From the sequence record PV435126.1: DNA of 64,000 bases; one strand, written 5' to 3'. The position numbers and the translations under genes are program-made. The notes under the pieces were generated by a model that saw only the letters and a list, made by a program, of their open reading frames with translations, ran no database searches and was not told where the DNA came from. This DNA is from Escherichia phage EPFV3-03/2025. This document shows positions 39,276 through 45,379 of this stretch, piece after piece. Every line of letters starts with the position of its first letter. Position 1 is the stretch's first letter.

Positions 39276-39626
39276 TCAGTAGATGTTTTGTTTAATCTCT
39301 ATTCCAAACTTTTTAAACGAGTCAGCAGCAAGCATGAATTTACGAGCCGCTGATGGGTTAGAAGTATGCACGAAAATCTTCACGTTGTCAACTACAGGAG
39401 GCTTACCAAATACAAATTTTTCTTCCAGCATAGATAGGCAATCGTACCCTTCAAATACCTCTCCAAGGTCGTTGTCCATGTGCCACTCAGAAACGCGCCT
39501 GTAGAGCTTTCCCTTATCGTTAATAAAATCAATAAACTCAGAGGAATTCTTTAGCCAAAGAGCATCTGGGAGCCCATAATTTGACGGATCTCTCAAGTCA
39601 TCCAGCCACACAATCAACTTCTTCAT
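39276..39626 (-). CDS. hypothetical protein, possible receiver-like RNA-repair accessory domain
   Basis: 116 aa; N-terminal KLIVWLDDLRDP strand-loop; translationally coupled to the RNA ligase gene. Confidence 0.4.
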   Translation of the reverse strand: MKKLIVWLDDLRDPSNYGLPDALWLKNSSEFIDFINDKGKLYRRVSEWHMDNDLGEVFEGYDCLSMLEEKFVFGKPPVVDNVKIFVHTSNPSAARKFMLAADSFKKFGIEIKQNIY

Positions 39627-40558
39627 TGCATATAGTCCTCGTTGTGGAAATAGCAGTCAAGTATCTCACGGCGTTCCTGCTCCAGGAGGCAATTCCACAC
39701 ATCTTCTGTGTAGTTTCTACGAATGAAGTTTACCATGCCGTAAAACTCTTCGTCAACACGTTTAAAGATATCATCATCCCAAATCTTCCAAGCTCTACCC
39801 CTCATTACGACCTTCCGTGCCAGATAGTAGGGAGACTTGATCTTTAGTTGCAGGTCATAAGGGTAGTAAGACTTACGGATCATATACCCTTCGCCCCTTG
39901 TTTCTGCAGCCAACTCTTTTGCATAGCTGAACGGAATTTCACGCACAGTGTGAGGACGTTTTGCACCAAGGTATTTGGCAATACCGTCTAAAGCTGCTTC
40001 TGGTAGCATTATTCCAGAATCATTGTATCGGCAACCGATCAAATAGGCACCATGATCTTCCTGAACAATATGCGGGTCTGAAGGGTGACAAATTTCAAAC
40101 ATGAATGTCATGTTTTCATGGCCCATAACCTTCTTGATAAGATCTAAATTACCACATTGCTCCTGGATTGTTTCCTTTGCGAGGTTACAATATGGAGAAT
40201 CAAGAGACCCTGTTGTTGAGAACAACAGTTCACCTTTGTGAGATGATACCACACCAAGGAATCCGTTCTTTTTCTCTACCGCCGTCACAAGTTTATTGTC
40301 AGGCAGGTTGGTGGAATTTTCTCCCAAGTTAAATACTTTTGTGAAGGGCCATGCCACAACATTTCCTTCATTACCGACAACAATTCCTCGGCACTCTAGT
40401 AAACGCGGAGACAAATGCCATAGATTGTTGTAAAATACTTTTCTGGCATATTTATAGATCTTTAACCCAAGATCTGGATAATACCGACTGGTTACAAGAC
40501 CTTTATCCACTAAATCATCTGCATTAAAATACTTCATCATACATTCCTCGTTTGTCAT
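39623..40558 (-). CDS. RNA ligase-like nucleotidyltransferase
   Basis: 311 aa; candidate motif I KKNG, motif IV EGYMIRK, motif V LKIK; separate from the DNA ligase; next to the Pnkp-like genes. Confidence 0.6.
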   Translation of the reverse strand: MTNEECMMKYFNADDLVDKGLVTSRYYPDLGLKIYKYARKVFYNNLWHLSPRLLECRGIVVGNEGNVVAWPFTKVFNLGENSTNLPDNKLVTAVEKKNGFLGVVSSHKGELLFSTTGSLDSPYCNLAKETIQEQCGNLDLIKKVMGHENMTFMFEICHPSDPHIVQEDHGAYLIGCRYNDSGIMLPEAALDGIAKYLGAKRPHTVREIPFSYAKELAAETRGEGYMIRKSYYPYDLQLKIKSPYYLARKVVMRGRAWKIWDDDIFKRVDEEFYGMVNFIRRNYTEDVWNCLLEQERREILDCYFHNEDYMQ

Positions 40559-40601
40559 TTTGTCACTCTATCTTGCCACACAAATAAACTAGTGTCAACA
40601 C

Positions 40602-40630
40602 TTGAAATGAACAAAAGAGTTATGTATACT
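40602..40630 (+). promoter_or_regulatory. sigma70-like promoter
   Basis: TTGAAA-N17-TGTATACT upstream of the first plus-strand gene. Confidence 0.5.
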
Positions 40631-40658
40631 ACCATTAAAATTAAAACGGAGGATTACT

Positions 40659-41069
40659 ATGTCTAAAATGCTGTATATCGTGCGTGGTCTACCAGGTTCT
40701 GGCAAATCAACACTGGCAAATGCACTATCTTTAGAGGGGCTGTACCCACATTTTGAGAACGACATGTTCTGGTACGACGACGATGGAAATTACAACTGGG
40801 ATGCAAGTAAAGTAACACTTGCAGCAAAATGGTGCAAAGATAACGTAGAAGATATGATGCGTATGGGATACGACCGTGTCGTGGTAAGTAATACGTTTAC
40901 AAAAGAAAAACATGTGCAAGAATATGTTGACATGGCAATCAGTCATGGGTATAGTTATACTGTGATCGTGGTTGAAAACCGCCACGGTAATAAGAGCATT
41001 CATGATGTTCCAGATAGGGTTGTGGACCGTATGGAGCGTGAGCTTAAAAACTGCATTAAACTAAAATGA
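40659..41069 (+). CDS. polynucleotide 5'-kinase (Pnkp kinase-domain-like)
   Basis: 136 aa; P-loop GLPGSGKST and VSNT resemble the T4 Pnkp kinase domain. Confidence 0.7.
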   Translation: MSKMLYIVRGLPGSGKSTLANALSLEGLYPHFENDMFWYDDDGNYNWDASKVTLAAKWCKDNVEDMMRMGYDRVVVSNTFTKEKHVQEYVDMAISHGYSYTVIVVENRHGNKSIHDVPDRVVDRMERELKNCIKLK

Positions 41070-41076
41070 GGGATGT

Positions 41077-41631
41077 ATGAAATATTTTGTAACAAGCGAT
41101 ACACACTTTCTCCACCAGCGAGTCATGGAGTTTGATTCATGTCAAAAACACAGATCTCAGTATGATCACAATCTTGACAGTATGAACGAAGGAATCATTG
41201 CAGAGTGGAACTCTGTTGTATCACCAGAAGACACTGTGTTTCACTTGGGCGATATTGCATGCACTAAGGATAAGAATATCAACAACTTATTTCCAGATAT
41301 TCTAAATATGTTGAACGGACATATTATTCTTGTTCGTGGTAACCATGACACAAGGACGACTGTCAGAATTATGAAAGAGTTCGGTCATGAGGTTGTAGAT
41401 TATTACGAGCTTCGCCACAACAAGAATTTGATCTGTATGAGCCATTACCAGTTTGCAAAGTGGAACAGAAAGCCTCACGGATCAGTCCAACTGTTCGGTC
41501 ATGCTCACGGAACCACACAGCAGTTGTTTGGCAGGCAGTTTGATGTCGGTTGGGATGTGTGGGGGAGACTCTTACCATTAGAAGAGGCATACCGTATTGC
41601 AATGAGTCTTGCTATTGACAGCGGGGAGTAA
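41077..41631 (+). CDS. calcineurin-like metallophosphoesterase (candidate 2',3' end-healing phosphatase)
   Basis: 184 aa; SDTHF, GDI, GNHD, GHAH motifs. Confidence 0.8.
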   Translation: MKYFVTSDTHFLHQRVMEFDSCQKHRSQYDHNLDSMNEGIIAEWNSVVSPEDTVFHLGDIACTKDKNINNLFPDILNMLNGHIILVRGNHDTRTTVRIMKEFGHEVVDYYELRHNKNLICMSHYQFAKWNRKPHGSVQLFGHAHGTTQQLFGRQFDVGWDVWGRLLPLEEAYRIAMSLAIDSGE

Positions 41632-44074: not shown

Positions 44075-44103
44075 TTGACAATCAGTATTTGCCGTGATAA
44101 AAT
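44075..44103 (+). promoter_or_regulatory. sigma70-like promoter
   Basis: TTGACA-N17-TAAAAT upstream of the gene at 44132. Confidence 0.5.
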
Positions 44104-44470: not shown

Positions 44471-44479
44471 AATATTTTC

Positions 44480-44508
44480 TTGACAAACTTTGCTTAACAG
44501 TGTAATAT
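44480..44508 (+). promoter_or_regulatory. sigma70-like promoter for the tRNA cluster
   Basis: TTGACA-N17-TAATAT about 60 bp upstream of the first tRNA. Confidence 0.55.
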
Positions 44509-44566
44509 TGTAAACATGGTCTCCCACCTTTTCTGGCGGCTCAGGTGTAAAAGAAAGCCACCCAGT

Positions 44567-44641
44567 GCCCTGTTAGCTTAGTGGATAAAGCAGCGGCCTT
44601 CTAAGCCGTTGACACTGGTTCGAGTCCAGTACGGGGTGCCA
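44567..44641 (+). tRNA. tRNA-Arg (anticodon UCU)
   Basis: Cloverleaf by eye: acceptor gccctgt/acggggt, anticodon loop cttctaa, T-loop ttcgagt, encoded CCA. Confidence 0.75.
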
Positions 44642-44645
44642 AATT

Positions 44646-44732
44646 GGGGAGTTATCCCGTAGAGGTAGCGGTGTAGACTGTAAATCTATTGTCATTGCGA
44701 CTCGGGTGGTTCGACTCCACCACTCCCCACCA
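44646..44732 (+). tRNA. tRNA-Tyr (anticodon GUA)
   Basis: Acceptor ggggagt/actcccc, anticodon loop ctgtaaa, long variable arm, T-loop ttcgact, CCA. Confidence 0.75.
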
Positions 44733-44856
44733 AATTTATATTTTTAAATGCATAAATCATACAGATAATGACATTGATATTTATCGTCGTTTATACTAGT
44801 CACTAACTGCTCGAAAATCAGTGTCATTATCAGTGTAATTTATAAAGGAGGGTAGG

Positions 44857-44947
44857 GAGCAATGGTGCTCAAGCGGTCTTGAAAACCGTCCCGTTGAGGA
44901 TGACTCGATGATGGTTCGATTCCATTACTCTCCGCCACATTGTTGAC
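44857..44947 (+). tRNA. tRNA-Ser (anticodon UGA)
   Basis: Acceptor ggagggt/actctcc, anticodon stem-loop gcggt-cttgaaa-accgt, long variable arm, T-loop ttcgatt, CCA; exact 5' end uncertain. Confidence 0.6.
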
Positions 44948-45035
44948 CTTGTAATTAAGCGAAAGCCGGAAGCAGAACCGGATTATCAAATGTTACAGTC
45001 GTCATCGCCGACTAGCCACATGGTCAACATATTGC

Positions 45036-45134
45036 GCTAGGTAAGCCCTTTGGCAAGGGCGAGGATTTTTAATCCTGAAAATAGACGAGGTAGTCGTTGA
45101 ATACATAGGTGGTTCGATTCCATCACCTAGCACC
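45036..45134 (+). tRNA. atypical oversized tRNA-like element (about 99 nt; anticodon uncertain, loop candidate tttttaa)
   Basis: Perfect 7-bp acceptor pairing gctaggt/acctagc, D-arm gccc-tttggcaa-gggc, T-arm ggtgg-ttcgatt-ccatc, but about 30 nt between anticodon arm and T-arm. Confidence 0.4.
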
Positions 45135-45139
45135 TTTTT

Positions 45140-45215
45140 GCTGATGTAGCACAATTGGCAGTGCAATTGATTTGTAATCAATAGGTTGCAGGTTCGAGTC
45201 CTGCCATCAGCACCA
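45140..45215 (+). tRNA. tRNA-Thr (anticodon UGU)
   Basis: Acceptor gctgatg/catcagc, anticodon stem-loop attga-tttgtaa-tcaat, T-loop ttcgagt, CCA. Confidence 0.75.
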
Positions 45216-45216
45216 T

Positions 45217-45291
45217 GGCCCTGTAGCTGGAAGGTTCAAGCAAGCGACTCATAATCGCCAGACGGTGGTTCAATTCCACCCAGGGCCACCA
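45217..45291 (+). tRNA. tRNA-Met or Ile2 (anticodon CAU)
   Basis: Acceptor ggccctg/cagggcc, anticodon loop ctcataa, T-loop ttcaatt, CCA. Confidence 0.7.
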
Positions 45292-45303
45292 AATAATAAA
45301 TAC

Positions 45304-45379
45304 TCCGCGTAGCTCAGCTTGGTAGAGCGCCTGATTTGGGATCAGGAGGTCGAGTGTTCGAATCACTCCGTGGAGACCA
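45304..45379 (+). tRNA. tRNA-Pro (anticodon UGG)
   Basis: Acceptor ctccgcg/cgtggag with C1-G72, anticodon stem-loop cctga-tttggga-tcagg, T-loop ttcgaat, CCA. Confidence 0.7.

Follow-up and report, generated by a model that had tools for sequence, protein, structure and literature searches.

The 64,000-nt stretch of Escherichia phage EPFV3-03/2025 analysed here (PV435126.1; hereafter the window) carries at positions 44567-45379, to judge from its sequence, a tRNA operon of the Vequintavirus (rV5-like) coliphage type. Besides six canonical tRNAs the cluster encodes a seventh, tRNA-shaped RNA, which appears to belong to an undescribed, phage-only family of L-shaped tRNA-like RNAs and for which a non-canonical tRNA-Lys(UUU), or a mimic of it, is the likeliest identity, with a role as decoder or decoy. 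We consider it quite probable that the region as a whole is a co-transcribed, host-processed operon for codon supply, with backup of host tRNAs as a second role and with the seventh RNA as its Lys(UUU)-like species or mimic. The cluster and its promoter, as first noted in the original prediction, are already published, because the rV5 genome paper (Kropinski et al. 2013) lists six tRNAs (Arg-AGA, Tyr-TAC, Thr-ACA, Met-ATG, Pro-CCA and Ser), makes the codon-usage argument for them and gives the exact promoter sequence (PMC3606486). The cluster itself adds nothing new; the seventh RNA, and a motif in the spacer before it that is shared with phage lambda, merit attention of their own.

ARAGORN, applied to the whole window, found seven tRNA-type genes, all on the + strand and all within 44567-45379. 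Each was scored against the Rfam tRNA model RF00005 at its curated cut-off, a gathering score of 29 bits:

44567-44641, + strand: tRNA-Arg(UCU), by ARAGORN and RF00005 (67.8 bits); reads AGA (and AGG); CCA encoded
44646-44732, + strand: tRNA-Tyr(GUA), by ARAGORN and RF00005 (29.9 bits, barely over the gathering score); class II; the variable arm is long, and A73 and CCA are present
44847-44937, + strand: tRNA-Ser(UGA), by ARAGORN only; class II with G73 and CCA
45036-45134, + strand: seventh, non-canonical tRNA-shaped RNA, by ARAGORN (unassignable) and RF00005 (35.5 bits)
45140-45215, + strand: tRNA-Thr(UGU), by ARAGORN and RF00005 (77.1 bits); CCA encoded
45217-45291, + strand: CAU tRNA of the Ile2 type, by ARAGORN and RF00005 (60.0 bits); CCA encoded
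45303-45379, + strand: tRNA-Pro(UGG), by ARAGORN and RF00005 (66.4 bits); CCA encoded

Six of the seven genes passed the gathering score (29.9-77.1 bits), five of them canonical. The exception was tRNA-Ser, whose best Rfam match was the same-clan tRNA-Sec model at 41.5 bits, below its cut-off of 47; by eye its cloverleaf is a regular class II one, relatives annotate it as tRNA-Ser, and it is 70% identical to T4 tRNA-Ser(UGA) and 82% identical to tRNA-Ser of phage D6. The low-scoring tRNA-Tyr is likewise labelled tRNA-Tyr in related phages, and tRNA-Arg(UCU) and tRNA-Pro share 69% and 82% identity with their T4 counterparts. Direct reading showed an N73-CCA 3' end and a regular 7-bp acceptor stem in all six canonical genes. 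The original prediction of six canonical tRNAs plus a tRNA-like element was therefore recovered by ARAGORN and Rfam at the same positions, with every anticodon assignment upheld by ARAGORN; there was no general rejection of cloverleaves by the predictors and no assignment of other anticodons. Over the full length of this 1-kb region, identity to many Vequintavirus coliphages, among them B9-1, EduardKellenberger/Bas59 and naswa, is 98-99.6% and the gene order is the same; the tRNA cluster is annotated in >100 genomes.

The seventh RNA is the part on which annotation pipelines disagree, and structural selection on it is clear across several phage subfamilies. Database records label it tRNA-Lys, tRNA-OTHER, tRNA-Pseudo, tRNA-TERM or '???', or omit it; the tRNAscan-SE-based annotations of the BASEL phages call it tRNA-Lys. 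It measures 99 nt and takes a cloverleaf fold (z = -3.7 at a minimum free energy of -34.2 kcal/mol). The acceptor stem is a perfect 7 bp, the D arm is GCCC/GGGC and its loop UUUGGCAA, the 4-bp anticodon stem AGGA/UCCU has G..G on its flanks, the anticodon loop is UUUUUAA with UUU at 45068-45070, the 30-nt variable region contains a 5-bp stem, and the T arm reads GGUGG-UUCGAUU-CCAUC. The 3' end consists of A73 at 45132, CC and then U5, with no encoded A76. Comparison of the window with L042, a diverged rV5-like contig, gives 97% identity for the element where the adjoining spacer has 80%; the corresponding figures are 89-100% for the tRNAs, 100% for promoter plus leader and ~80% for the spacers overall.

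Homologues of the seventh RNA were found in other phages as follows:

Avunavirus: Av-05, inside the tRNA cluster
Seunavirus: PVP-SE1, GAP31, 4MG, NINP13076, FENT2 and GE_vB_MG, inside tRNA clusters
Mydovirus: KB57, DP and VLCpiM5b, inside tRNA clusters
Henunavirus: pEp_SNUABM_01, inside the tRNA cluster
Stephanstirmvirinae: arall (L007 2029-2136), inside the tRNA cluster, diverged, with loop CAUCAAA; phi92 is without a family member
Schitoviridae: Salmonella phage UTK0002, inside the tRNA cluster

The family spans five Vequintavirinae genera, one Stephanstirmvirinae phage and one Schitoviridae phage, plus viral and metagenome contigs; a homologue in Salmonella phage 21 (L069) was left out, as it looks degraded and its record is unverified. 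An exact scan for the family motif AATACATAGGNGGTTMGATTCC gave no match in 185,579 species genomes, and a bacterial origin of the family was rejected on this ground. The same motif was found in 12 viral and 18 metagenome contigs, each with a strong match to the family model, while the looser pattern CTTTGGCAAGGNCGAGG returned 51 loci on viral contigs, five of them real. Under the covariance model of the family, R1, the window copy scored 106.7 bits and other members 76-118 bits, compared with at most 26 bits for ordinary tRNAs.

The fold is supported by covariation. Among 14 distinct sequences, 294 of the 294 scored base-pair cells form standard pairs, and 10 of the 21 pairs have changed on both sides. 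These include the tertiary elbow pair G19:C56, which becomes U19:A56, and covariation of this tertiary pair argues for a true L-shaped fold. None of 500 shuffles matched the observed pairing percentage or covariation score, partner-shifted controls reached 34-45% pairing, and RNAalifold independently recovered the family cloverleaf. Conserved throughout are the body and the two flanks of the variable arm, AAAAUA and (G/A)AAUACAUA; the arm itself takes several forms, in one of which a covarying stem bears the conserved loop GAACUAACAGUAC. The window RNA shows the whole set of family features, namely the covarying cloverleaf, the 19:56 pair, the AAAAUA/AAUACAUA flanks and the enlarged variable arm.

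These data bear on the suggestion that the element is a decaying tRNA pseudogene among long junk spacers, so that only the six canonical tRNAs would matter. Such decay would fit an RNA that is unannotated or labelled 'tRNA-Pseudo' or 'tRNA-OTHER' in many GenBank records, that has an imperfect anticodon stem and whose 5' half is missing from phage V18. It is nevertheless very improbable, being contradicted by the complete pairing, the covariation including 19:56, the shuffle controls and the RNAalifold cloverleaf. The 97% conservation beside a spacer at 80%, the presence of the family in several phage groups and compensatory changes in both spacers also speak against it. On these comparisons the seventh RNA is not a pseudogene, and that reading is disfavoured.

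The anticodon loop was compared among 25 distinct family members and took the following forms:

(C/U)AUCAAA, that is, UCA with A33: Henunavirus, Ithacavirus, arall and metagenome contigs
CCAUCCAG, CCUUCCAG, CCAGCCAG and CCCUCAAG, of 8 nt, or 6 nt with a 5-bp stem: Seunavirus and Mydovirus
UUUAUAA: Av-05
UUUUUAA: rV5-like phages

In most lineages, U73 is followed by an encoded CCA; Av-05-type members have U73 or C73 without CCA. A73 occurs in the rV5 clade only, the change to it being confined to the clade that has UUU. The 31:39 pair is A-U in the rV5 clade and U-A in the other lineages. The anticodon arm of Av-05 equals that of tRNA-Ile2 at 9 of 11 positions, differing by C32U and C34U (CAU to UAU). 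It appears that the rV5 anticodon arm has converged on the host tRNA-Lys(UUU) stem-loop, of which it is a near-copy. The clade of rV5 and Av-05 looks like a decoder or a close mimic, and the other lineages look unlike ordinary decoders.

Several features of the window RNA agree with tRNA-Lys(UUU): UUU in a 7-nt loop, U33, A37, and A73 at 45132. UUU and A73, both present, are what we take to be the identity elements for lysyl-tRNA synthetase. Positions 30-40 (GA-UUUUUAA-UC) match tRNA-Lys(UUU) of E. coli, in the host sequence that we assume, at 10 of 11 places, and that assumed sequence is consistent with the site U36AAUC|A41 of the PARIS nuclease AriB (PMC12409363). Other features disagree with a class I tRNA-Lys, namely the 4-bp anticodon stem with G·G (or with nucleotide 26/27 missing) and the 30-nt variable region, and the homologous triplets are UAU in Av-05 and UCA, UCC or GCC elsewhere. 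If the RNA is indeed a tRNA-Lys, its class II-like body would be unprecedented.

Two other assignments were tried and rejected. Membership in tRNA-Sec (RF01852) disagrees with the 7/5-bp stems, UUU, A73 and the higher score under the general tRNA model. Homology to T4 rnaC/rnaD was negative by both R1 and pairwise alignment: on T4, R1 matched only tRNA-Thr and tRNA-Leu at 23-24 bits and nothing on rnaC or rnaD, and the global identity of the seventh RNA and the spacers to rnaC/rnaD was no better than to unrelated tRNAs. A literature search returned no description of the seventh element and no RNA decoy, a weak negative as its coverage was incomplete.

The variability of the anticodon arm invites another explanation, which we regard as possible but not likely: the seventh RNA would not decode at all but act as a tRNA-shaped decoy or regulator, with its fast-evolving anticodon arm as bait for a nuclease, modification enzyme or synthetase, and with the conserved L-shaped body and enlarged variable region giving processing, stability and binding. 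Among the 25 members the body is invariant or covarying while the anticodon loop varies in both sequence and length, mostly with A33 and not U33. The variable-arm flanks are strongly conserved, single-stranded and unlike any class II tRNA, the motif is absent from the species genomes scanned, and the authors of the PARIS study suggest that viral tRNAs may act as competitive AriB inhibitors. A decoy, however, has no need of a fully canonical loop (7 nt, U33, A37) plus A73, as in the rV5 clade; in most other lineages U73 precedes an encoded CCA, suggestive of an end that can be aminoacylated; and no binding partner is known for it. If it were a decoy instead of a decoder, the seventh RNA would be an RNA-based anti-defence element.

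T4 Pnkp and Rnl1 counter PrrC, and with PrrC at least three defence nucleases, the others being PARIS AriB and a bacterial Schlafen, attack the host tRNA-Lys(UUU) that the seventh RNA appears to mimic. The E. coli tRNAs cut by AriB are Lys(UUU), Thr(UGU) and Asn(GUU), and phage T5 escapes this nuclease through variant tRNAs with U39A and A41C (PMC12409363). In E. coli tRNA-Lys, the change of A41 to C ('Mut2') substantially inhibits AriB cleavage, and a mutation at position 39 abolishes it (PMC12409363). The bacterial Schlafen RorSlfn5 cleaves tRNA-Lys(UUU) and tRNA-Ile(CAU) (PMC13056530), and Retron-Eco7 degrades tRNA-Tyr (PMC12673091). The general idea that phage tRNAs replace attacked host tRNAs has already been published (PMC10264068). 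The seventh RNA has C41 in place of A41, the 'Mut2' change, and retains U39. Positions 36-41 of the phage tRNA-Thr are UAAUCA, the very sequence at which AriB cuts tRNA-Thr(UGU) and tRNA-Lys(UUU) of E. coli (site from PMC12409363), and evasion of PARIS by this tRNA through site substitution is accordingly unsupported.

An RNA-repair-like triad of genes lies 3-5 kb upstream of the cluster, at 39623-41631; rV5 gp82 and gp81 bear the same annotations:

39623-40558, - strand: Rnl1-family RNA ligase (PF09511, E = 3.7e-15)
40659-41069, + strand: P-loop kinase (AAA_33; PF13671, E = 5.3e-11)
41077-41631, + strand: calcineurin-like metallophosphoesterase (PF00149, E = 6.1e-6)

The Lys-like, Thr and Tyr species and the nearby repair cassette make replacement of nuclease-targeted tRNAs plausible. 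More tentatively, the seventh RNA might be a nuclease-resistant tRNA-Lys, or a decoy, directed against PrrC, PARIS or Schlafen and acting alongside the repair genes, with the other lineages aiming elsewhere. A stronger form of this idea, which we find doubtful, holds that the cluster serves mainly against defence: its tRNAs, including the Lys-like RNA, would replace or shield host tRNAs cut by PrrC, PARIS AriB, Retron-Eco7 PtuAB, bacterial Schlafens and colicins D and E5, and the neighbouring genes would repair the cuts. The species do overlap with known targets (Lys(UUU) and Thr(UGU) of AriB, Tyr of Retron-Eco7, Lys(UUU) and Ile(CAU) of RorSlfn5), the Lys-like RNA has the AriB-inhibiting C41, the triad is close by, the replacement hypothesis has precedent in print, and related phi92-type phages carry Lys, Tyr, Asn and Thr tRNAs consecutively. 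Yet the phage tRNA-Thr has the same site as its host counterpart, the Lys-like RNA keeps U39, and the cluster is without an Asn tRNA. Moreover, a literature search found no Vequintavirus infection data on PARIS, PrrC or retron hosts, and the strong AGA signal in codon usage is explained without defence.

As a separate observation, the canonical tRNA genes Lys(UUU), Tyr, Asn and Thr(UGU) stand in succession in the Stephanstirmvirinae phages phi92, KP13-26 and arall (L005-L007). This set corresponds exactly to the targets of PARIS and Retron-Eco7.

Codon supply was examined with phage codon shares taken from 87 crude open reading frames in the window. AGA makes up 25% of Arg codons against 5.1% in the host, ACA 37% of Thr codons against 14.6%, CCA 30% of Pro codons against 19.1%, and TAC 48% of Tyr codons against 42.7% (host values from PMC3606486); ATA accounts for 15% of Ile codons, its host share being absent from the rV5 paper. 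A second host reference, a 50-kb E. coli sample, includes a genomic island of atypical usage and is biased, so that the figures of the rV5 paper are the better reference. Relative to this sample, the phage uses CCT 2.6-fold, AAG 2.5-fold, AGA 2.2-fold, TCT 2.2-fold, CTT 2.1-fold, AGG 1.7-fold and AAA 1.5-fold more per 1000 codons, and Lys codons amount to 73.5 per 1000 in the phage versus 41.8. In the late genes immediately downstream, AGA, AGG, TCT, CCT and ACT rise further. Codon supply is supported for Arg, Thr and Pro and is weaker for Ser-UCA, Ile-AUA and Tyr; by inference, reading of CCU by Pro-UGG and of UCU by Ser-UGA would require the modification that U34 has in the host. The codon compensation put forward in the original prediction consequently fits AGA/AGG, ACA and CCA, and is weak for UCA and, against the biased host sample, for AUA. 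The late-gene check that it proposed gave the rise in AGA, AGG, TCT, CCT and ACT, as a comparison of codon usage.

The CAU tRNA is, on comparison with host genes, of the Ile2 type and not a tRNA-Met, with lysidine modification and AUA reading presumed. Its closest E. coli genes are annotated tRNA-Ile (in 5345 of 5426 complete genomes, with up to 81.6% identity), and not elongator or initiator tRNA-Met; the aligned host gene has a CAT anticodon. Acceptor pairs 1-6 (GGCCCU/AGGGCC, including C4:G69 and C5:G68) are identical in the phage and host genes, as is the entire anticodon stem-loop AGCGACUCAUAAUCGCCAG. The pairs C4:G69 and C5:G68 together with the Ile2 anticodon stem-loop, which we take to be the determinants for E. 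coli TilS, are thus all present. Furthermore, the 5' acceptor strand of T4 tRNA-Ile(CAU) is the same, and the BASEL records, annotated with tRNAscan-SE, give the CAU tRNA as a tRNA-Ile reading ATA. The earlier proviso that AUA would be read if this tRNA is Ile2 was settled in favour of Ile2 by the host tRNA-Ile match, the TilS pairs and the BASEL annotation.

Upstream of tRNA-Arg lie a predicted promoter and a leader:

44480-44508, + strand: promoter-like site of the sigma-70 type, TTGACA (44480-44485), a 17-nt spacer and TAATAT (44503-44508)
44509-44566, + strand: 5' leader of the presumed tRNA precursor, 56/56 identical in L042

The promoter-like site starts 10 nt past the stop codon of the upstream open reading frame and ends 58 nt before tRNA-Arg, has a perfect -35 hexamer and agrees with the consensus at 10 of 12 positions. 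An identical sequence is listed in Table S4 of the rV5 paper as the predicted promoter 'PtRNA' (PMC3606486). A consensus scan of 3 kb gave nine promoter-like sites against 5.7 expected by chance, and a consensus match on its own is weak evidence for a promoter. Conservation offers better support: 44471-44566, covering promoter and leader, is identical to L042 at 96/96 positions, compared with ~80% in the intra-cluster spacers and 93% at the end of the upstream reading frame. The predicted PtRNA therefore combines consensus hexamers, a spacing within 16-18 nt, a suitable location and conservation, and the TTGACA-N17-TAATAT promoter of the original prediction holds up at 44480-44508 as a predicted one. 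The leader showed no significant fold (z = +0.98), and no terminator was predicted before or after the cluster; since none separates it from the upstream genes, read-through from upstream promoters is possible or even likely, and continuation into the downstream genes is likely. Two terminator-like sites were rejected: within the seventh RNA, 45045-45060 is the D arm and 45106-45129 the T/acceptor arms, and other lineages lack the U-run 3' of them.

Spacers 1 and 2, on either side of tRNA-Ser, are themselves structured:

44764-44831, + strand: spacer 1, between tRNA-Tyr and tRNA-Ser, a 15-bp hairpin (minimum-free-energy z = -4.6)
44941-45029, + strand: spacer 2, between tRNA-Ser and the seventh element, with a core at 44953-45016 (~64 nt) of two hairpins

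In spacer 1, GAUAAUGACAUUGAU (44764-44778) pairs with AUCAGUGUCAUUAUC (44817-44831) around a conserved loop of ~38 nt; L042 has two double compensatory changes in the stem and a nearly invariant loop. The hairpin could mark a site of processing or else be a small, stable RNA. Its 5' arm also holds the -35-like hexamer of a possible internal promoter, ATGACA-18-TATACT (44768-44797), which would drive Ser, the seventh RNA, Thr, Ile2 and Pro separately. This site matches the consensus at 10 of 12 positions, a level at which chance expectation is high. In L042 the hexamer reads ATGGTA with compensating changes in the 3' arm, so that the constraint lies on RNA pairing and not on the hexamer. With the hexamer not conserved and the enclosing hairpin conserved, the internal promoter was rejected as improbable.

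In spacer 2 the closing stem is UGUUGACC (44941-44948) with GGUCAACA (45022-45029) in the window, GAGGAUC/GAUCCUU in L042, GUUGUGCUG/CAGCACAAC in lambda and UUGGCU/AGCCAA in D6, that is, wholly different in sequence between lineages and complementary in each. Unannotated copies of the core, at 85-89% identity, occur in lambda, the P1-like phages P7 and D6, and Salmonella phage ST1UNAM. The lambda copy (J02459 44866-44934) lies in the late leader between orf-64 and S. Of 5426 E. coli genomes, 426 also contained the core, with 332 of its places on chromosomes and 121 on plasmids, and an Rfam search gave no family matching the motif. In the phage D6 record (L079 182-887), the tRNAs Asn, Thr and Ser are annotated opposite to the strand given by Rfam, probably an annotation error.

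Taken together, the preferred reading is that host RNA polymerase would transcribe the cluster from PtRNA, possibly with read-through as well, as one precursor, which host RNase P, RNase E and 3' exonucleases would trim into mature tRNAs; the host CCA-adding enzyme would finish the seventh RNA, the one species without A76. The main role would be to provide more decoders for codons used more by this phage, at 43% G+C, than by E. coli, namely AGA/AGG, ACA/ACU, CCA/CCU, UCU/UCA and AUA, provided that U34 is modified as in the host, and, should the seventh RNA decode, also the Lys codons, of which the phage makes heavy use. Without excluding this, a second role would be the backup of host tRNAs destroyed by defence nucleases (Lys, Thr, Tyr, Arg, Ile-CAU).

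Several observations weigh against this reading. UCA and AUA are not enriched relative to the biased, island-containing E. coli sample, and TAC is so only marginally. PtRNA is a consensus match only, with further promoter-like sites upstream at 44075 and 43778. The phage tRNA-Thr retains the AriB-sensitive UAAUCA. The seventh RNA departs from every known tRNA-Lys in its stem, its variable region and the lack of an encoded A76, and its relatives carry non-Lys triplets, many in 8-nt loops (6 nt behind a 5-bp stem) or with A33. Losses in relatives point the same way. In phage V18 (L099 1255-1350), a natural ~390-bp deletion has joined the seventh element's 3' part to the 5' half of tRNA-Tyr, with loss of Ser and both spacers, and tRNA-Pro (L099 1510-1590) has a scar, GAGATAAACCATTGGG, that resembles an HNH insertion junction. 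V18 retains only the Arg, Thr and CAU tRNAs; it is a viable isolate without Tyr, Ser, the seventh RNA and Pro, and these species are therefore accessory. In phage VB-EcoM-WM (L003 1403-1790), a ~345-bp insert encoding a 113-residue HNH endonuclease (PF01844) divides tRNA-Pro after its D arm. Because the 5' strand of the anticodon stem has been lost there, this tRNA-Pro appears disrupted and not intron-interrupted. Phage YP-6 gave the same two-piece tRNA-Pro match around a ~345-bp insert, whose sequence was not read, and so it is apparently split in the same way.

Downstream of the cluster, running rightward, are a reading frame of 89 residues, a spanin gene (lysis), the terminase and structural genes. 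Among database records, 18 or 19 unannotated MG0656xx entries named 'Campylobacter phage' are ~98% identical to rV5-like coliphages here, and their host label is doubtful.

The closest known system is the cluster of rV5 and other Vequintavirus phages, which has the same genes, order and promoter sequence at 98-99.6% nucleotide identity to sequenced relatives. The rV5 paper counts six tRNAs, names the CAU species Met and leaves the seventh element and the structured spacers unmentioned (PMC3606486). Phage T5 also encodes a Lys(UUU)-type tRNA next to Thr(UGU), and its tRNA-Lys has C41 as in the seventh RNA. The T5 tRNA-Lys, however, is a normal class I tRNA that also has A39, whereas the seventh RNA has U39, a 4-bp anticodon stem and a 30-nt variable region; in contrast to T5, the tRNA-Thr of the window phage keeps the host cleavage site.

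The tRNA region of T4, with eight tRNAs, the stable RNAs rnaC and rnaD, and segB, is likewise a tRNA operon of a virulent coliphage. Five anticodons are common to its set of eight and the window (Arg-UCU, Ile-CAU, Thr-UGU, Ser-UGA and Pro-UGG, at 64-82% pairwise identity), which points to a common selective pressure in E. coli; the window cluster has Tyr and lacks Gly, Leu and Gln. Both clusters contain extra structured RNAs without an assigned function, homing-endonuclease genes occur at the cluster in each case (segB in T4, the HNH gene in the relative VB-EcoM-WM), and both phages encode an Rnl1-type RNA ligase. The ligase, kinase and phosphoesterase triad resembles the healing-and-sealing pathway of T4 Pnkp/Rnl1 for tRNA.

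As to the seventh RNA, a long variable arm is shared with class II tRNAs (Ser, Leu, Tyr) and tRNA-Sec, and a possible 6-bp D stem with a 4-nt loop with tRNA-Sec; several family members have UCA with A37 and A38, as in tRNA-Sec. The family differs from tRNA-Sec by acceptor/T stems of 7/5 bp instead of 8/5 or 9/3 and by U73/A73 instead of G73; the long, conserved, single-stranded flanks of the variable region and frequent A33 also set it apart. Its single body with anticodon triplets that differ by lineage is as expected if charging ignores the anticodon, and 'allo-tRNAs', with their unusual cloverleaves, form a further class for comparison.

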